DNA of 64,000 bases, taken from assembly GCF_050920415.1 (NCBI RefSeq), contig NZ_CP169309.1. One strand, 5' to 3'. The notes under the pieces were generated by a model that saw only the letters and a list, made by a program, of their open reading frames with translations, was not told the DNA's origin and did no database searches. The position numbers and the translations under genes are program-made. This document shows, piece by piece, positions 13,508 to 24,102 of this stretch. Origin of the DNA: Escherichia coli (GTDB lineage Bacteria; Pseudomonadota; Gammaproteobacteria; Enterobacterales; Enterobacteriaceae). How positions within the stretch are numbered: position 1 is the first letter of the stretch; each line of letters starts with the position of its first letter.

Positions 13508-13578
13508 GTATAACTAAATGATTTTAAATAATATTCTTTATTCAACTTTTAAATCGTATAACCAAACGTATAACTAAA
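13508..13578 (+). repeat. Three copies of the 11-mer GTATAAC(T/C)AAA (putative integrase arm-type sites)
   Basis: Copies at 13508-13518, 13556-13566 and 13568-13578. The same 11-mer occurs four times at the other end of the island. Confidence 0.6.
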
Positions 13579-13660
13579 ATAATTTGCTGAAAAAGTGTAC
13601 AATTTCAGCAATAATTGCCCTAGCGACTATCATCCTGCTCCCCGGATTTTTTCCGGTTAA

Positions 13661-13897
13661 ATGTTAATCAGGCTGCTGGGCTTTGCCTGTTCGGTAGGTG
13701 TAATGATTATCGTAATACTTTTCCCCCAATGGGGTAAAAGCATCAACCGTAACGGAAGTCGTTATGGTTGCCTTGATGATCTGCGTGGTCATTATGACCA
13801 TTCAGCCAATGACCTTAATCAGAGCTTTTCGCTAAAAATGACGTTGGCCACTCGTCCGAAAAGCACAAAATCCCATCGATTTTTAATTAACGGTTAA
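13661..13897 (+). CDS. Hypothetical small membrane protein
   Basis: 78-aa ORF with a hydrophobic N-terminus (LLGFACSVGVMIIVILF). The stop lies within an ACGGT-TAA-ACCGT hairpin followed by CTTTTT. No recognisable homology. Confidence 0.3.
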   Translation: MLIRLLGFACSVGVMIIVILFPQWGKSINRNGSRYGCLDDLRGHYDHSANDLNQSFSLKMTLATRPKSTKSHRFLING

Positions 13898-13908
13898 ACC
13901 GTCTTTTT

Positions 13909-13943
13909 GTCACGTCGTGTCACTGGTTGTCACTCTCCGTCAC
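13909..13943 (+). promoter_or_regulatory. Four direct GTCAC repeats at exact 10-bp spacing (putative DNA-bending/recombination-directionality or regulator sites)
   Basis: tGTCACgtcg tGTCACtggt tGTCACtctc cGTCACgatc, with GTCAC at 13909, 13919, 13929 and 13939. Confidence 0.5.
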
Positions 13944-14035
13944 GATCTCCGATAGCCTGGCTGCAAATTAAACTACGAAAATTTCGTAGTTCTGACTTCT
14001 TTCAGATAGTCGGTTGCCTGGTTACACGAAAAAAA

Positions 14036-14407
14036 TTACTTCCTGCGTTTATCCCGCTTTGTATGTCCGTGCTGAATGCCCCGCAGTGGATCTTCTTTTT
14101 TCAGGTCGATCCCCATGTCCGTTAGTGTTTTTGTGGCGGCGGTTCTTATGGCACAAATCAGGTCTCTTTCCGGTTCCCGGGTTATGGTTGCCTTCCGGAT
14201 ACATGCCGTTCGTCGTTCCGTTACATACTGACGCGCTTCATCACTTGCCGCCTGTTTCAGTAACTCACCCCAGCGATTAGCCGCCCGTCGCCATAAACCT
14301 TTCGCTTCCAGTTCTTCCGCTTTGTCATCATGCACCATAAGCATAATCCCATTGATACCTGTTAAATCTGAATGGTTGGTTTCCGTTCTTTTGATAATTT
14401 CCCTCAT
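14036..14407 (-). CDS. PerC/Pch-family transcriptional regulator
   Basis: Contains MVHDDKAEELEAKGLWRRAANRWGELL, the signature LE--G-WRRAA-RW of PerC/Pch proteins. The true start may be at the internal Met near 14338-14344. Confidence 0.7.
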   Translation of the reverse strand: MREIIKRTETNHSDLTGINGIMLMVHDDKAEELEAKGLWRRAANRWGELLKQAASDEARQYVTERRTACIRKATITREPERDLICAIRTAATKTLTDMGIDLKKEDPLRGIQHGHTKRDKRRK

Positions 14408-14410
14408 AGC

Positions 14411-14440
14411 TTATTGTATGACAGTACTGTCCCACAATAA
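14411..14440. promoter_or_regulatory. Nested inverted repeat in the divergent perC-like / 99-aa gene control region
   Basis: TTATTGT-atGACAGTACTGTCcc-ACAATAA. The inner 12-bp perfect palindrome is at 14420-14431. Confidence 0.5.
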
Positions 14441-14450
14441 GGAATCACAC

Positions 14451-14750
14451 ATGAGAATGACCAGGCACAAAAAACAGATTCTTGAACTTTACAAACCTGA
14501 GTATCGCGATTGGGTGCGGGTGGAGGCCGGAGATCCGCCTTTTGATGTTCGTGGTGTGACAGTGCTGCTCTATGGTTCCGAATATCAGCGATATCACATA
14601 GAGGCAACCCGACGAACGTTAAACGCTATGGTAAATGATGGGATCCTGTACCGCGTGAAAGTGCGCGAACCCCGCTTTGATGTGCGTATCGGTAGCGATG
14701 GCGCTCACTGTACGGTAATCCGGTACGGGCTGGGTAAATCAGATGATTAA
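14451..14750 (+). CDS. Hypothetical protein (99 aa)
   Basis: An AAGGAA RBS lies 7 nt upstream of ATG 14451 (MRMTRHKKQILELYKPEYRDW...). In frame with ORF 14322-14750. No recognisable family. Confidence 0.5.
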   Translation: MRMTRHKKQILELYKPEYRDWVRVEAGDPPFDVRGVTVLLYGSEYQRYHIEATRRTLNAMVNDGILYRVKVREPRFDVRIGSDGAHCTVIRYGLGKSDD

Positions 14751-14756
14751 ATCACC

Positions 14757-14852
14757 AGAATGTAAATTTACATTCTGCCAGCCACCAGCTACAGAACGCA
14801 AATTTGCACTTTGCTGAAATATTAACGGGTTAGGCCAGAGTGCAAATTTGCA
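14757..14852. promoter_or_regulatory. Three related AT-centred palindromes TG(T/C)AAATTT(A/G)CA
   Basis: AGAATGTAAATTTACATTCT (14757-14776, a perfect 20-mer), GCAAATTTGC (14798-14807) and TGCAAATTTGCA (14841-14852). Confidence 0.55.
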
Positions 14853-14873
14853 TTATGCTTTAACTTCAGCAAG

Positions 14874-15155
14874 TTACCGCCGTAACCGCTCCGGCTTCTT
14901 CCACTGGTACGTTATTTTGGCTTTTTCCCTGTACGTCTGTATCCGGCGACGGTAGGCCAGCATTTCAAGAACGCGGATCCGTATGTCGCGCATATCCGCA
15001 TCATTAAGCTGGATACCATCACGGTGCATCACCTCAGCAACCACACGAACATAATTTTCTGCGGTCACGCTGTCCGGCTGCGTGGCCTGTTCGTCAGCCT
15101 GCTGGTTGATTCCGGCGACGCGGCGGATTAATCGCAGTAGTTCGGTTTCTGTCAT
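14874..15155 (-). CDS. Hypothetical protein (93 aa), downstream of the capsid gene
   Basis: ORF MTETELLRLIRRVAGINQQ... with a basic C-terminus, preceded by conserved cassette A. No family recognised. Confidence 0.5.
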   Translation of the reverse strand: MTETELLRLIRRVAGINQQADEQATQPDSVTAENYVRVVAEVMHRDGIQLNDADMRDIRIRVLEMLAYRRRIQTYREKAKITYQWKKPERLRR

Positions 15156-15194
15156 TGTGCCCCCATCGCGCTGGTTAAGAAAACAAGCTCAGAT

Positions 15195-15408
15195 TTTTTG
15201 TAAAGAATCTGTCACGCTAAAAGATGTCGAACAAAAAACAACCTTCTCCATCATCTTTTTTGCATCGATTACATTAAAAACAACAGGTTACATACATGAT
15301 GATGATGACGATAAAATCACAAAAATGCGCTTTTTTCCGCGCCCGCCCGCCCCGTGTTCATACCCACCCCACCAGGAGGACCCGCAAAAAAGGCGGCTGG
15401 TGCCGCCT
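15195..15408 (-). promoter_or_regulatory. Conserved intergenic cassette A: terminator, G-tract block and putative activator-dependent promoter
   Basis: Read on the minus strand: hairpin GGCGGC-ACCA-GCCGCC followed by T6 (plus-strand coordinates 15385-15407). Then a G-rich block and a 36-nt block (15321-15356) that is 35/36 identical to 17860-17895. Then AGGTTGTTTTTTGTTC (15229-15244), 24 nt, and TTTACA (15199-15204). Confidence 0.55.
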
Positions 15409-15413
15409 TGTTG

Positions 15414-17303
15414 TCATAGTGAATCGGTACCGCCTGATTTGACCATACCGCGATAATCCAGAGCGGCCACACCAGCATCAATACGGACTTTCCAGGCCAC
15501 ACCGTCAACGATGAAACCTTCCTGCTGTTCAAGGTAAGGCTCGTCATTGCCATCAAGATAAGCCACCTCGATTGTGTCCGTTCCCTGTGCGGAAAGCATG
15601 TACCATTGTTTTTCGCTGATATCATCAAGGCGGGGATCGACGATAATATCCAGTAGTTTGTGATACGGGTTAAAGATCCCGCTGTTTTTATCTGCCCCGA
15701 AAGGTGCGGTTGAGTTAATCATCTGCAACGCGCGATCTTCCAGTGCTGCCGGAACTAAAAGGAATTTAGGCGCAATATTCAGCACTTCGCCATTTTTGTC
15801 CTTCTGTGTGCGCATCAGGTGACGTGCTGCACTAAGTCCCGGTGTTGTCAGTCCTGCTTCAATCAGGTTGCTGTGTTTTTTGTCAAACAGCGCTATTCCA
15901 TCAGAAAGTTTTACGTTGCCTGTAAGCACCAGATTAACCAGATTTCCCACCGTTCTTGATGCTGCACGGCCCATAGCCATTGGCACCGTTGATAACTGAT
16001 CAAGGTCATCATTGATTATCGCCTGGCGGGTAATGCTGAAAATATTCCCGTAAGTAGCCAGCGCGATGGGTTCACCGCGATCGCTGGTGGTGATGTATTT
16101 ATATTCTGCCCCTTCCGGCACTTTGTTTAACGTAGAGAAACCATTCAGACCAACGCGGCGGGCTTCACGAAAGTTTGAAAGGGAACCTTTTTTCGTCCAC
16201 TGGCGGAATGTTTCGCCGCTGTGCTCCCAGCCTGCAAGCACTGATTTTTCAGCACCACCAGCAAGGATATCGGTAAAATCGCTGCTGCTGTGGTTGAATG
16301 CCGCGTTTACTATCTGCGAGCGTGTTCCGTAGCTGCCCGTGCTTATACCACGATGGGTTAATGATGCCTGTGCCATATCGAAAAGGCTCATCATGGCGTA
16401 AGGATTACCGCGTTCGGCCCGTTCGTGACCAAGACGCGCATTAAGCCCCTGGCGCATTGCATCGCCGGTTATGTTGCCGTTATCCGTGTACGCGTAGTAA
16501 AGATTTGCGGGGGTGGTTTTATTTGTTGGCGTTGATTCTTTACCCATAGCGAGTAAAAGGCGTTCGCGTGCATTCTCAACGCTACATTCTGAATCAGCAA
16601 GACAACTTATAGCCAGGTCGTTATATCTTCCGTTGAACGTGCCAAACAATTCACGGATGCCGTTAAGTCGTTCCTGTTCGCCACTGCCAGTTTTCTGGCT
16701 GATCATGCTTTTAATTTTTTCCGGCATATTTGAAAAATCTCCGATTCGTTTTGATTCAATTCGGGCCATTGCTGTAATCGCGGGTATAACCTCATCTGCG
16801 AAGCCGTTAGCCTTACACTCATTGCCATCCATCCAGGTTTCCGCCTCCATCATGGCGGTGATTTCCTGTTTGCTCCTGCCCGTTCTTCCGGCGTAGGTTT
16901 CAGCCATCGTGTCGCCCAGCTTGTCCATCAGGTCAGCAAAGCGGCGAACGTCGCCCGACACTCCGGCAGTAACACCACGGGGGGCATGTATCATCATCAT
17001 TGCGTTTTCAGGCATAACGATGTGATCGCCACACATGGCAATAAACGAGGCCATAGAAGCCGCCATGCCTTCAATGTGTACAATTTTCTTTGCCGGATGA
17101 TTTTTCAGGGCGTTATAGATAGCCAGCCCTTCAAAGATGTCGCCACCAGGTGAATGGATGCGAAGATGGATTTCAGACGCATTACCACACGCGTTGATCT
17201 CGTCAGTAAGTGCCGATGCTTTTACACCGTACCCGCCGATCTCGTCATAAATGCGCACATAGACAACATCTGCCATAGCCTTAATGGAAAACCATGTTTT
17301 CAT
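15414..17303 (-). CDS. Prohead (ClpP/S49-like) serine protease fused to an HK97-fold major capsid protein
   Basis: 629 aa. The N-terminal ~180 aa (IYDEIGGYG...RIHSPGGDIFEGLAIYNAL...GMAASMASFIAMCGD) is typical of a phage head-maturation protease. The C-terminal ~300 aa (GAEYKYIT...ATYGNIFSITRQAIINDDLDQL...FLLVPAALE...WYMLSA) is typical of a phage major capsid protein. Confidence 0.8.
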   Translation of the reverse strand: MKTWFSIKAMADVVYVRIYDEIGGYGVKASALTDEINACGNASEIHLRIHSPGGDIFEGLAIYNALKNHPAKKIVHIEGMAASMASFIAMCGDHIVMPENAMMMIHAPRGVTAGVSGDVRRFADLMDKLGDTMAETYAGRTGRSKQEITAMMEAETWMDGNECKANGFADEVIPAITAMARIESKRIGDFSNMPEKIKSMISQKTGSGEQERLNGIRELFGTFNGRYNDLAISCLADSECSVENARERLLLAMGKESTPTNKTTPANLYYAYTDNGNITGDAMRQGLNARLGHERAERGNPYAMMSLFDMAQASLTHRGISTGSYGTRSQIVNAAFNHSSSDFTDILAGGAEKSVLAGWEHSGETFRQWTKKGSLSNFREARRVGLNGFSTLNKVPEGAEYKYITTSDRGEPIALATYGNIFSITRQAIINDDLDQLSTVPMAMGRAASRTVGNLVNLVLTGNVKLSDGIALFDKKHSNLIEAGLTTPGLSAARHLMRTQKDKNGEVLNIAPKFLLVPAALEDRALQMINSTAPFGADKNSGIFNPYHKLLDIIVDPRLDDISEKQWYMLSAQGTDTIEVAYLDGNDEPYLEQQEGFIVDGVAWKVRIDAGVAALDYRGMVKSGGTDSL

Positions 17304-17527
17304 AGCCAGGCTCCTAACGTTGCCCTGTACCAGTATTCAACCGCGCTGCGTGTGATTTGTCCTTTCGTGGGTACCGGCATACCCGGGTGATTGTCTTTGA
17401 TGAACTGCTGATAGCGTTCGATCTTCTCCATAGTTCCGGCGTCTATGTGTACCGTGGCACTTTTATCCGGCTTTCTGGTGTTGTTCTCTGGCATAAATCC
17501 GCCTCCGTTTTGATTAACGGGCATCAT
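17300..17527 (-). CDS. Hypothetical protein translationally coupled to the protease::capsid gene
   Basis: 75-aa ORF. An alternative start, MPENNTRK, lies at 17494. ATGA overlap with the capsid gene start. Confidence 0.5.
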   Translation of the reverse strand: MMPVNQNGGGFMPENNTRKPDKSATVHIDAGTMEKIERYQQFIKDNHPGMPVPTKGQITRSAVEYWYRATLGAWL

Positions 17528-17734: not shown

Positions 17735-17947
17735 TTTTTTGTAAATGTTTTCGGGAACGCTCCAGTGATGAACAAAAAACAACCTGATTCGACACTAAAA
17801 ATTTTTATTCCTCAATATATCAATAACTTATAGTGGTGGTGATGGTGCCATAAAAATCAAAAAATGCGCCTTTTTCCGCGCCCGCCCGCCCCGTGGACAG
17901 GCCCACCAAGCCAGGAGTACCTACAAAAAAGCCGGATTGCTCCGGCT
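17735..17947 (-). promoter_or_regulatory. Conserved intergenic cassette B (paralogue of cassette A)
   Basis: Same order of blocks as cassette A: hairpin AGCCGGA-GCAA-TCCGGCT followed by T6 (17925-17947), the 36-nt block at 17860-17895, AGGTTGTTTTTTGTTC (17770-17785), 24 nt, and TTTACA (17740-17745). Confidence 0.55.
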
Positions 17948-18261: not shown

Positions 18262-18500
18262 CCCTTGTCTACCTTATCTACCTTACTGGCCACCATGCCA
18301 GTAATGGCGCGGCTTTCAGTGGGGTAGAGTGCTTTTATCCACTATCTACCCCGTATCTACCTCCCTGTCTGATTCAGGTAAAATCAGGTAGAGAGGGTAG
18401 ATAGTAGGTAGACAGTAAAAAAAGGCTGTCTACCCAAGTTAATGTACTGAATTAAATGTATTTTTCTTTACTCAGGTAGACAGGGTAGACAGCCATTGCA
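18262..18500. repeat. Iteron array (putative replication origin of the island)
   Basis: Eleven copies of (G/A)TCTACC or its complement GGTAGA(C/T/G), starting at 18267, 18276, 18322, 18344, 18355, 18387, 18396, 18407, 18428, 18475 and 18484. They flank an AT-rich stretch (18436-18470). The array lies immediately 3' of the primase-helicase gene. Confidence 0.7.
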
Positions 18501-18505
18501 ACAAA

Positions 18506-20254
18506 TTATAAAAACGCGTCGCAATCGTCTGTTGTTATTGCGTTAGTCTGCGTTACTCCTTTAACTTTCCGCGTAATATATTCATGTCCGTAAACTTTCG
18601 CGGCTGGCTTCATAGCCTTGCCAAAGTCATTTACGTTTAGCGGTTTGCTCCTGCCTGCGTACGCCATAAACGCCAGATAGACGCGGTAAAGGCTGTTTCT
18701 GGTCGTGTACTTCACTGAATCGCCACCGCCGCCCATCATCAGGCCGCGTGCTTCCTCCAGAAAATTCAGGAACTGGCAAAACTCAATAACCGGATCCGTC
18801 TGTTGCTTTATTGCCAGTGCTTCATCACCGTCACGCTGTTCAATGAGTAAAGCCCGTGCCTTTTCAGGGTCGGCAAAGTTCGCCAGCAAGCGGCGGATAA
18901 TGACAGGGATTTCAGCCGCGATCTTTTCCGGTAGCTCCCTGTCTTTTTCTGCCTCGCTTACGATGTTATCGAACCGGAATATCACCCGACGACGTGCCAC
19001 ACCTCCGGCCCGTTCGGTGAATATCATCGGATTGTTATTGGTTGCCAGCACCACCGCCCTGATTACCGCCGTAAAACGCTTTTCATATTTCGGGTTAATT
19101 TCCACGGGGTCGCCGCCCGTGATTTTCTTGATGCCCGTTCCTTCGCCTGTATATTTCTGCTGGTCTGCCAGGACGATAAGACGACTCCCGACAACCTGCG
19201 CACGCCCACCAGCATCATCAAGCGATGTCATTTCAGCGCTTACCGTGTTTTGTTTCCCTGCCAGAAGGCTGGCTATGTGTGTGAATGTACTTTTACCGCT
19301 CCCGCCGTCTCCGGTGGCCTCAATAAACATCTGCCAGTCGTACCGGTTCGCCATAATCATGTACAGCGCGGCACATATACGCATCATCTTGCTCGGGTCT
19401 TTTCCGGCTGCGTGCTCAAGCCATTTATGAAAGTTTGGCGCGTTATCGCGGATGTTCTCCCCGGGTGCTGGTGGCGTGTACTCAATGCCGTTGTGCGTGG
19501 TGATCCAGTTCTCCGGCGTGTGCGGGGAAAATTCCCCCGTTTTCAGGTCAAGCGCACCATTGGCGAACGGCAGCAAATCGCCGGACGGCTCGCCCATTGG
19601 TTCGGCAATAACTTTTAACGCTTCCACGGCGTTATTGATTACGCGCTTGCTGAAAGTGGCCCTGTGCTCTGAATAGATAGCCACCATTTCGCGGCTCAGC
19701 TCCATTGTGCTGACCGGACACCATACCCCGCCGCGCCATACGTGAACGATTTCACTTTCAGGATGCACACAAACGCCATCAAAGCGCTCGGCAAGCAGCT
19801 GCGCGCGCTCACTGTCTGCCATTTGTGCCAGTTGCGTATTTTTCTGCTCCGGCATGGTAAGCCCTGCGGCAATATTTTCACGCTCAGCATTCAGATAGCG
19901 CCGCCAGTTTTCACACTTCTGGACGTGCATTCCTTCGGGGTAAAAATTTGCGTCCTGAATATCTGCCGCCGCCAGCTTCTGACCAATCTTTTTGGTCTCC
20001 ACCAAATCCAGTTCTCCGGCCTGGTACAGCCTTACGCGCTTTTTCCCATCCGGAACAATTTTCAGTGCATCAAGTTCGGCAAGCTGATTTGGCCCAAGCC
20101 ACACAGGCGGCACATTATCGCCGGATGCGGGGCCATCCTGCTCCTGCCATTGTTTCGCGTGCGACCAGGCATCACTACCCGCGAAAATAATTACCTCTGT
20201 GTCTTTGTGTTTTATTCCGCGTGGCTGTTTTTTTACGTTCGGTGCCAGTTTCAT
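18506..20254 (-). CDS. P4/D5-family primase-helicase (replication initiator, SF3 NTPase)
   Basis: 582 aa. Walker A GDGGSGKST, Walker B LIVLADQ. A D5_N-like region (LPFANGALDLKTGEFSPHTPENWITT) and a C-terminal DNA-binding-like domain. Confidence 0.8.
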   Translation of the reverse strand: MKLAPNVKKQPRGIKHKDTEVIIFAGSDAWSHAKQWQEQDGPASGDNVPPVWLGPNQLAELDALKIVPDGKKRVRLYQAGELDLVETKKIGQKLAAADIQDANFYPEGMHVQKCENWRRYLNAERENIAAGLTMPEQKNTQLAQMADSERAQLLAERFDGVCVHPESEIVHVWRGGVWCPVSTMELSREMVAIYSEHRATFSKRVINNAVEALKVIAEPMGEPSGDLLPFANGALDLKTGEFSPHTPENWITTHNGIEYTPPAPGENIRDNAPNFHKWLEHAAGKDPSKMMRICAALYMIMANRYDWQMFIEATGDGGSGKSTFTHIASLLAGKQNTVSAEMTSLDDAGGRAQVVGSRLIVLADQQKYTGEGTGIKKITGGDPVEINPKYEKRFTAVIRAVVLATNNNPMIFTERAGGVARRRVIFRFDNIVSEAEKDRELPEKIAAEIPVIIRRLLANFADPEKARALLIEQRDGDEALAIKQQTDPVIEFCQFLNFLEEARGLMMGGGGDSVKYTTRNSLYRVYLAFMAYAGRSKPLNVNDFGKAMKPAAKVYGHEYITRKVKGVTQTNAITTDDCDAFL

Positions 20255-22829: not shown

Positions 22830-24071
22830 TTATACGGCACGGATACCCCTTTTACCACTGGCTATGGTCACTCCGGTTGCTGCGGCCTCTACAAATTCCC
22901 CCCACCAGCGCATAAGCACCACGCGCTTTTCCAGGTAGTTACTTCGGTTATATGCTCGCCTTACCTCGTTCGTGTCCACGTGTGCGAGTGCGGCCTCGAT
23001 TACGTCCGGCTCGAATCCTTCCTCGTTCGCTGCTGTGCTGAATATGGCGCGTAATCCATGAGACACCAGCACGCCAGCGAATCCCATTCGCCGCAATGCT
23101 GCGTTGGCGGTCTGGCTGTTCATAGGCTGCCGTGGGTCTTTCAGGCTAGGGAAAACGTGCTCGCGGTGGTGGCTGATTGGCTTCATGGCCTCCAGTACCG
23201 CCATAGCCTGACTACAAAGCGGGATAACGTGATCACGCCGCATCTTCATGCGTCCGGCGGGGATCGTCCATTGTTGCGCGTCCATGTCGATTTCTTCCCA
23301 GCGTGCTGACGATGCTTCAACCGGACGGGTTACAGTCAGTAGCTGCCATTCAATCAGTAATCTGGTCTGCCGTTCTGTTGCTGATACGGATAAAGCCTGC
23401 ATAAGCTCCGGCAACTGTTCGGGGCGGATTGTTGGCATATGTTTTTTTACAGGGGAGGGGAACGCCTTACGCACATTCATAGCCGGATTGGCATCAATCA
23501 GCCCACTGTTGGCGGCGTAATCCATTACCTCATTAACGCGCTGTAAAACCCGCTTGAGTGTTTCCAGGTTGCCGCGCTCCTTGATGGGTGTAAGCACCTC
23601 AACGAACCTTCGGGCAGTGAGGGTATCTATTGGCGTGTTGCCGATGAACGGGAATACATATTTATCCAGCGAACGCCAGATGTCTTTAATCGTGTTGGGG
23701 GCCAGATTCTGGCTGATTTTCACCTGGTACCATGCCGCCGCCACATTTTCGAACGTGTTCCCTTGTCTTCGGGCCTCTGCCTCTCGTTTTTTCTTCTCAT
23801 GGTCCTGCGGGTCAGTTCCGGCACTGATTAACGTCCTGTACTCGCTACGGCGTTTTCTGGCATCAGCCAGGGAAACATCTTCAAGAGATCCAAAACTCAG
23901 CAATATTCTTTTTTTGTCCGATGGTCGGTAGTAGGAAAATCGCCAGAGTTTTGATCCGGACGGTTTTACCAGGAGAAAAAGCCCACCGCCGTCCTGTAGG
24001 GTGTACTCCTTTTGCGCTGGTCTGGCTGCTTTGATCTGCACTGTGGTTAATGGGGGTGTTTTTCTCGCCAT
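22830..24071 (-). CDS. int: P4/CP4-57-type tyrosine integrase
   Basis: 413 aa from MARKTPPLTTVQIKAARP...GGLFLLVKPSGSKLWRFSY (the N-terminal arm-binding domain typical of P4-type integrases). The catalytic region contains HGLR...ALAH...Y. The gene is adjacent to a tRNA. Confidence 0.9.
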   Translation of the reverse strand: MARKTPPLTTVQIKAARPAQKEYTLQDGGGLFLLVKPSGSKLWRFSYYRPSDKKRILLSFGSLEDVSLADARKRRSEYRTLISAGTDPQDHEKKKREAEARRQGNTFENVAAAWYQVKISQNLAPNTIKDIWRSLDKYVFPFIGNTPIDTLTARRFVEVLTPIKERGNLETLKRVLQRVNEVMDYAANSGLIDANPAMNVRKAFPSPVKKHMPTIRPEQLPELMQALSVSATERQTRLLIEWQLLTVTRPVEASSARWEEIDMDAQQWTIPAGRMKMRRDHVIPLCSQAMAVLEAMKPISHHREHVFPSLKDPRQPMNSQTANAALRRMGFAGVLVSHGLRAIFSTAANEEGFEPDVIEAALAHVDTNEVRRAYNRSNYLEKRVVLMRWWGEFVEAAATGVTIASGKRGIRAV

Positions 24072-24102
24072 ATGTCTATGATTCCACACGAAAAAACAGG
24101 GT

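Follow-up and report, generated by a model that had tools for sequence, protein, structure and literature searches.

Candidate transcript-end hairpins between two convergent genes of a PICI-like satellite island in Escherichia coli

Introduction

Intrinsic terminators combine a stem-loop at a gene end with a T-rich tail on one strand, and phages also carry terminators of cis-antisense RNAs inside genes, as lambda oop does within cII and P22 sar within arc-ant. REP/BIME elements are short clustered palindromes of 3' intergenic gaps, proposed to stabilise upstream mRNA and dispersed in hundreds of copies through the host core genome. Other hairpins are read as DNA: the left ends of IS200/IS605 elements carry TTAC about 19 nt from a hairpin, and the integron attC is a single-strand hairpin site. 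Among E. coli PICIs, EcCICFT073 has a two-cos arrangement with cosB/Rpp-TerS cis sites near its end, and RppA is a protein of 144 aa (PMC6739421).

The array analysed here, three AT-centred palindromes in the gap between two convergent genes of a satellite-type island, resembles each of these systems in part. Like intrinsic terminators, it belongs to a set of stem-loops at gene ends with a T-rich tail on one strand, and the GC-rich alleles and intact 22-mers of this set pass a terminator scan. Unlike them, the copies in the window (the whole 64-kb stretch of DNA that was analysed) have AT-rich stems and degraded T-tails, and the cassette to which they are assigned has a conserved flank of 15-19 nt, stacks in tandem and occurs inside coding sequences. 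The likeness to oop and sar lies in an in-gene hairpin with a U-tail, antisense to a gene at the cII/ant position immediately after cro, but no convincing conserved antisense promoter was found for the in-gene hairpins. With REP/BIME the array shares short clustered palindromes in a 3' intergenic gap; its motif, however, occurs on mobile elements, with all three copies in the 64 kb confined to the island, and it has no GTAG head, measures 22 nt rather than ~35 nt and includes in-frame copies within genes. The likeness to IS200/IS605 ends and attC lies in head-to-tail units and in a hairpin with a freely varying stem that follows TAAC or TTAC at a fixed distance, whereas the cassette offers one "end" only and its flank is conserved well beyond the tetranucleotide. 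As in EcCICFT073, cis sites lie near the end of a two-cos E. coli PICI, but the 93-aa gene separates the array from cosN, no homologue of Rpp was detected, and the cassette also occurs in prophage early regions (compare PMC6739421).

Results

The island is satellite-type and PICI-like, spans ~10.8 kb, and is integrated at proL in E. coli, with yejM/proL and yejO/narP as its flanks. Along the 801 bp compared (14400-15200), the window is 100% identical to E. coli strain 08-00022. The island adjoins tRNA-Pro(GGG) (24290-24366), and a tRNA-Pro repeat at ~13480 marks an island end. The minus strand carries a P4-type integrase (22830-24089), a D5_N/DUF5906 primase (18506-20254), a 75-aa RHH-like protein (17300-17527), a ClpP-protease/major-capsid fusion (15414-17303), the 93-aa gene (14874-15155, stop codon 14874-14876), which is the last of the late module, and a PerC-family protein (14036-14407). 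The 99-aa gene (14451-14750, stop codon 14748-14750) lies on the plus strand, and its transcript heads into sites 1, 2 and 3 in that order.

The 93-aa protein belongs to phrog_1561 (863 clusters) and is carried by 1,874 of 5,426 complete E. coli genomes. It has no Pfam hit, its predicted model consists of three helices for which the fold search was uninformative, and a contig scan with the protein returned one locus only. Its gene closes the late module in the satellites inspected, namely a protease-capsid island, a cf-PICI-like island at phoQ, and a satellite lodged within the terminase gene of a prophage. In E. coli O157:H7 strain 3-5-1 (locus L004, 1536-5651) the late module, comprising the 75-aa gene, the protease-capsid fusion and the 93-aa gene, sits within a truncated prophage terminase gpA gene, an arrangement of the helper-embedded satellite type described in bioRxiv 10.1101/2022.07.18.500453. 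The 99-aa family is tiny (17 clusters), and its structure model is a weak winged-helix fold (pLDDT 61, fold-search E-values 0.06-0.5) that faintly resembles Fur, RTP, and histone H1. A 32-bp inverted repeat, CTTATTGTATGACAGT/ACTGTCCCACAATAAG (14410-14441), occupies the region of the divergent PerC/99-aa promoters and is of a type also present upstream of both 99-aa paralogues in locus L007; this repeat is likely the operator of the PerC/99-aa cassette.

The functional sites expected of such an island were located outside the gap. A pair of lambda-like cos repeats (15311-15408 and 17850-17947), each of 98 nt and 79% identical to the other, reads ACGGGGCGGGCGGGCGCGGAAAAA on the minus strand; one copy precedes the 93-aa gene and the other precedes the 75-aa and capsid genes, a layout like that of cos1 and cos2 in EcCICFT073 (PMC6739421). 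The array shares the same 1.5-kb end region with cos, but it lies 460-600 bp away and beyond the 93-aa gene, whereas a cosB-equivalent would be expected between cosN and that gene (PMC6739421). Iterons of GGTAGA(C/G) type, for example TCAGGTAGAGAGGGTAGATAG and TCAGGTAGACAGGGTAGACAG, occupy 18272-18492 just downstream of the primase gene and are probably the island replication origin. Near the island end, GTATAACTAAA occurs three times and TGTCAC four times at ~10-bp phasing (13508-13578 and 13905-13950), and these repeats are probably integrase-arm or AlpA/Xis binding sites. A TGTCAC block also stands directly after the 93-aa gene in some related islands.

All three palindromes listed in the first-pass annotation were found at their coordinates, inside a gap that is indeed 123 bp long (14751-14873) between the stop codons of the plus-strand 99-aa gene and the minus-strand 93-aa gene. 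Their common core, TGYAAATTTRCA with at most one mismatch, occurs three times in the 64-kb window, each time inside the gap, against a mean of 1.21 in shuffled sequence, and simple arithmetic puts the chance of three random matches falling inside 96 bp at ~7e-6. The palindromes themselves are real, but the extents first given to them (a 20-mer and a 12-mer) were too narrow, as the symmetry runs wider and each site is a 22-nt inverted repeat of the form CAGARTGYAAATTTRCAYTCTG. Site 1 (14756-14777) is a perfect 22-bp palindrome, CAGAATGTAAATTTACATTCTG, which starts 6 bp past the 99-aa stop codon, has no TAAC leader, and is followed on the minus strand by a moderately T-rich tail (GTGATTTAAT). 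Site 2 (14792-14813, CAGAACGCAAATTTGCACTTTG) and site 3 (14836-14857, CAGAGTGCAAATTTGCATTATG) are imperfect 22-nt inverted repeats that are able to pair with one another. The centres of sites 1 and 2 are 36 bp apart and those of sites 2 and 3 are 44 bp apart.

As RNA, site 1 is predicted to fold into a hairpin of -9.8 to -10.8 kcal/mol (z = -6.4 and -4.5 against shuffles), and sites 2 and 3 alone reach -3 to -6 kcal/mol, values that shuffled sequence matches. Every 99-aa homologue is followed by a site 1 conserved at 100%, even where the gene is just 84-90% identical. A promoter scan of 14751-14873 called none, in keeping with the original expectation for this gap, and the clustering of three motif matches with 22-nt dyads upholds the earlier view of a cis-acting feature that is not a product of chance. 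Conservation in related islands had been named as a test, and the sites do recur there. An Rfam scan of the island returned no family at the sites, and a full-text literature search with the site sequence returned DNA-dodecamer biophysics papers only.

A Chi site, GCTGGTGG, lies on the minus strand at 14782-14789, between sites 1 and 2. Because the 64-kb window holds 24 Chi sites, one in the gap is unremarkable and probably incidental, and Chi was rejected as the purpose of the array. By arithmetic from the counts, the density of Chi across the 600 bp that follow the 93-aa gene in related islands (L043-L122) is ~5 times the window-wide value; these sites mostly share one orientation, and the loci are related, so the count is not independent.

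Read from the sequence, sites 2 and 3 are parts of a ~42-nt cassette composed of TAAC, a leader of 15-19 nt of RTTGAWAWWWW type, and a hairpin whose centre lies ~27-30 nt past TAAC. Cassette 2 (14792-14832, minus strand) has TAAC at 14829-14832, the leader CCGTTAATATTTCAG, and site 2 as its hairpin. In cassette 3 (14836-14876, minus strand) the TAA of TAAC doubles as the 93-aa stop codon (14874-14876), followed by the leader TTGCTGAAGTTAAAG and site 3. Cassettes 3 and 2 are thereby two tandem units on the minus strand, and site 1 is the same hairpin allele without a leader. Site 3 is the positional homologue of a hairpin found ~19-20 nt past the stop of 93-aa homologues, where many different stems occur, and cassette 2 aligns through its leader and hairpin with a KilA-N gene segment and with other PICI units, reading NPLIFQQSANLRS against NLLKNIQTGNLRS in KilA.

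Related islands contain one to six such units, arranged head-to-tail directly after the 93-aa stop, with stems such as GCGCAAAATTGCGC, CCTCAATTTGAGG, TTCGCCAGCGGCGAA, GCCCAAAAATGGGT and AGCTCATTTTTGAGCT; in the first unit after 93-aa homologues, the TAA of TAAC is again the stop codon of the gene. Over 78 distinct units the hairpin centre falls 26-31 nt past TAAC, and this position is filled by at least 15 different stems (among them CCTCAA/TTGAGG, GCGCAA/TTGCGC, TTCGCC/GGCGAA, GCCCA/TGGGT, AGCTCA/TGAGCT, and TCCCCCA/TGGGGGA, besides the 22-mer). The leader homology is seen in the comparison of TAAC-TT-ATTGAAAAATATC-CAGA... in KilA-N genes with TAAC-CC-ATTGAAAAATATC-CAGAATGC... in PICI units. 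It is the ~42-nt cassette alone that is shared with KilA-N genes, and the neighbouring coding sequence is not.

Two further loci show unusual arrangements of these elements. In E. coli 2013C-3033 (L123, 2980-3260) a block of ~250 bp contains no fewer than six different hairpin units, with the 22-mer present twice; this block follows a 93-aa 3'-end remnant and is flanked by the genes of a MazF toxin and of a Q antiterminator. In a P4-like element (L020, 7285-7317) the 22-mer half-sites CAGGATGTAAA and TTTATATTCTG stand 11 bp apart, a pair that may be a split or expanded-loop copy of the 22-mer.

Of 5,426 E. coli genomes, 65 carry the 22-mer; its copies there all belong to mobile elements and none sits on a plasmid. 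It was absent from 50,697 isolated phage genomes, a search whose sensitivity is limited for 22-nt queries. Because it is this rare, the 22-mer is not a host core regulon site. An IMG/VR scan recovered it in 33 contigs with several unrelated flanking contexts. In context A it lies in frame inside KilA-N/ANT genes after cro in lambdoid prophages. In context B it follows the stop codon of an ant-like gene (phrog_1726) and precedes a canonical terminator; leader and hairpin are homologous to the 3' end of this gene as well, and TAA is its stop codon too. Context C is an in-frame position within an ORF that belongs to the AlpA-primase operon in P4-like satellites, contexts D and E are PICI ends like that of the window, and context F comprises isolated cases next to a serine recombinase. 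Another copy lies in a BREX island of an E. coli genome. At least six unrelated contexts agree fully at nine of the 11 half-site positions and in the AAATTT centre, and the two variable half-site positions toggle independently in each half.

The in-gene copies were used to follow how the hairpin changes at a fixed position. Ten KilA-N alleles, with DNA recovered from different Enterobacteriaceae, were compared over nine proposed pairs; the alleles at identical KilA-N codon positions include CAGAATGTAAATTTACACTCTG, CAGACTGCATATTTGCAGTCTG, CAGACCGGGAATCTCCGGTCTG, CAGACCCCGAATCTGGGGTTTG and CAAAGCCCGAATTCGGGCTCTG. Pairing was retained in 90% of cells against 75% in shuffles, a level that none of 500 shuffles reached, and both sides had changed in five of the nine pairs. 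These observations were further supported by 14 doubly changed cells (5.5 expected), a covariation score of 0.50 versus 0.23, and slid-partner controls in which 20-46% of cells paired. Compensatory turnover at a fixed position carries the signature of selection for a hairpin, whether as RNA or as single-stranded DNA, rather than for a fixed double-stranded protein site. A second in-frame inverted repeat, 23 nt long, occurs after the ELDGE motif in the phrog_1726 ant-like gene of context B, and its four alleles also differ by compensatory changes. A 21-bp palindrome, AACTACGAAA-A-TTTCGTAGTT, found at 13971-13991 in the window, at 3217 in L022 and at 12834 in L028, is a relative of this phrog_1726 hairpin. 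No conserved antisense promoter emerged when the surroundings of the in-gene hairpins were searched for one, and the sole candidate lies ~370 nt off in L012.

A terminator pattern scan classed the hairpin as an intrinsic terminator on the strand opposite the leader in four loci: L012 and L035, which carry the exact 22-mer with an intact T-tail, and L127 and L128, whose alleles have 5-6 GC pairs. A T-tail (at least 5 T in 8 nt) follows the hairpin in 21 of 78 units on the strand opposite the leader versus 0 of 78 on the leader strand, so that a classical T-tail is present in only 27% of units (n = 78). In sister islands, the 99-aa gene and site 1 are followed by canonical plus-strand terminators (for example CTCCTCAAAATTGAGGAG then CCTTTTTAT) where the window has sites 2 and 3. 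Within the gap itself none of the three sites passes the scan (0/3), and the best T counts per 8-nt window beginning 0-2 nt past the stem are 5 for site 3 on the plus strand, 3 for site 2 on the plus strand, and 4 for site 1 on the minus strand. The earlier remark that AT-rich centres make poor terminators is accurate for the window copies, which fail the scan, but it does not extend to the allele as such, because the identical 22-mer with an intact T-tail is terminator-like elsewhere. Assignment of a strand from G-U versus A-C pairs was tried and dropped, as the contexts disagree: the wobble orientation favours the strand opposite the leader in contexts A and C and the leader strand in context B.

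Discussion

The sites, the homology of the cassettes, their fixed position, the compensatory evolution of the stems, and the strand bias of the T-tails are observed. We read the array as transcript-end or insulator hairpins, with a rough probability of 0.45, because some copies are terminator-like, T-tails fall on one strand, and sister islands have terminators at the corresponding place; termination or protection of the RNA 3' end would be the function that we infer from these observations. A portable cassette would build up in head-to-tail stacks immediately behind the 93-aa gene that ends the late module of E. coli PICI-type satellites, with selection acting on base pairing and not on a fixed double-stranded recognition sequence. 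On the plus strand, the hairpin and the T-rich tail behind it, weak in the window, would end transcription arriving from the 99-aa gene or from outside, and this stop would keep the late/packaging operon from being read in antisense. On the minus strand, the same stems may cap the 3' end of the late-operon mRNA, and site 1 would represent the hairpin allele on its own, linked to the 99-aa 3' end. Counting against this reading are the failure of all three window sites in the terminator scan, the shuffle-level folding of sites 2 and 3, the small share of units with a classical T-tail, and the contradictory wobble orientation. Against purely structural selection stands the unusual constancy of the 22-mer allele. 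Overall, the array is most likely a variant of terminator-like hairpins of modest novelty, distinguished by an unusual cassette architecture and by in-gene copies kept by compensatory evolution.

That constancy is also where a protein-binding explanation finds its footing. Under it, the sites would be double-stranded operators or roadblocks for a dimeric DNA-binding protein, such as the 99-aa protein, the island RHH protein, or a protein of Bro/KilA-N/ANT type; Roi of HK022 reportedly binds in or near its own gene. The 22-bp dyad symmetry of each site with its 11-bp half-sites, the invariance of nine of 11 half-site positions and of the A3T3 centre over at least six unrelated contexts, the presence of three sites per 96 bp, and the weak resemblance of the 99-aa model to winged-helix binders (Fur, RTP, histone H1) are all compatible with such a role, as is the restriction of the motif to just 65 of 5,426 E. 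coli genomes, from which it follows that any binder of the 22-mer would be encoded by a mobile element. However, alleles at homologous positions swap their inner 10-14 bp by compensatory pairs, which a fixed protein would not tolerate, and no protein family is common to all contexts among the flanks examined. Islands differ in the palindrome downstream of the 99-aa gene although the encoded protein keeps an invariant recognition helix, a separate 32-bp inverted repeat lies in the 99-aa promoter region, and the array lies between two stop codons rather than at a promoter. The proposal that these are repeated dimer-binding sites is thus contradicted by stems that keep their pairing while the sequence turns over at a homologous position (5/9 pairs; at least 15 stems), and we consider this explanation unlikely.

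Individual binders were also considered and set aside. The 99-aa protein was judged an unlikely cognate binder on several grounds, namely its tiny family, the differing palindrome beside an invariant helix, the inverted repeat at its own promoter, and its absence from the other contexts. For the host transcription factors Fur, Zur, NsrR, PurR, TyrR, ArgR, Fis, IHF, and CRP the spacing does not fit when compared by eye with the consensus sequences, and a host factor site is further disfavoured by the lack of the motif in 99% of E. coli genomes. The cI-cro operators of a context-A prophage bear no resemblance to the 22-mer.

A rather improbable explanation is that the units have no function of their own and are decaying debris or recombination scars left by KilA-N-type segments and by repeated cassette replacement at the island end. 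It would account for units that read as KilA-N-like peptides (NLLKLKHNANLHSG and NPLIFQQSANLRS), for the way in which homology between islands breaks exactly at the units while patches of 37-64 bp occur alone elsewhere, for the degenerated T-tails of the window copies, and for the KilA-N remnant nearby (~13640-13800). Against it, the ~42-nt cassette is shared but the adjoining KilA-N coding sequence is not; moreover, pairing is held at a fixed distance by different stems in dozens of non-coding units, and site 1 is fully conserved beside a gene at 84-90% identity.

Two further readings are together a long shot: the ~42-nt unit may be a mobile or recombinogenic cassette recognised as single-stranded DNA by a hairpin-specific enzyme, or the terminator of an oop- or sar-like antisense RNA that satellites have copied. 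If the mobile version is true, the candidate readers would be an HUH/Y1-type enzyme or the nuclease-related Bro-N/KilA-N domain. Insertion would be in frame within antirepressor genes, would supply neighbours with stop codons and 3' ends, and would pile up at satellite ends, so driving module shuffling in the "Bro network" of phages and satellites. If the antisense version is true, a conserved RNA would control KilA-N antirepressors.

That the array serves packaging, partition, replication, or site-specific recombination (as a cosB-like TerS/Rpp site, parS, a contrahelicase Ter, or a resolution site) is very improbable and goes unsupported, because cos, iterons, and att-arm repeats are all elsewhere in the island, notwithstanding 8-bp arms around a 6-bp AT spacer that resemble a recombinase core site and the place of RTP among the top, though weak, fold matches of the 99-aa model. 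The proposals of this kind in the first-pass annotation met the following results. A TerS/Rpp packaging site is disfavoured by the position of cos and by a 93-aa protein unlike Rpp/TerS, which was rejected as their analogue when no PDB sequence match to RppC or TerS appeared at E <= 1. The suggested search of helper phage pac/cos regions gave 0 matches, since the motif is absent from the 50,697 isolated phage genomes, and the same cassette occurs in a prophage early region far from cos/pac. A Pfam and PHROGs scan of ten island ORFs detected neither ParA nor ParB nor a resolvase, so that a partition site would lack its partition protein, and the att-proximal repeats (13508-13578, 13905-13950) lie outside the gap.

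With regard to the question first asked of this gap, the array no longer counts among the candidates for a packaging, partition, or operator site. If the units are structure-selected cassettes, TAAC, leader, and fixed-distance hairpin together would be a marker of the variable end of E. coli PICI-type satellites and would explain how the late/packaging operon is shielded from convergent transcription from accessory genes or host flanks. Such cassettes would also link satellites, P4-like elements, and lambdoid prophages through a 42-nt nucleic-acid module that also occurs within the coding sequence of antirepressors. In prophages of Salmonella, Klebsiella, Citrobacter, Enterobacter, and Escherichia, compensatory change has preserved the in-gene copies, and this suggests an unstudied layer of KilA-N gene control, which may operate through antisense termination or antisense RNA.
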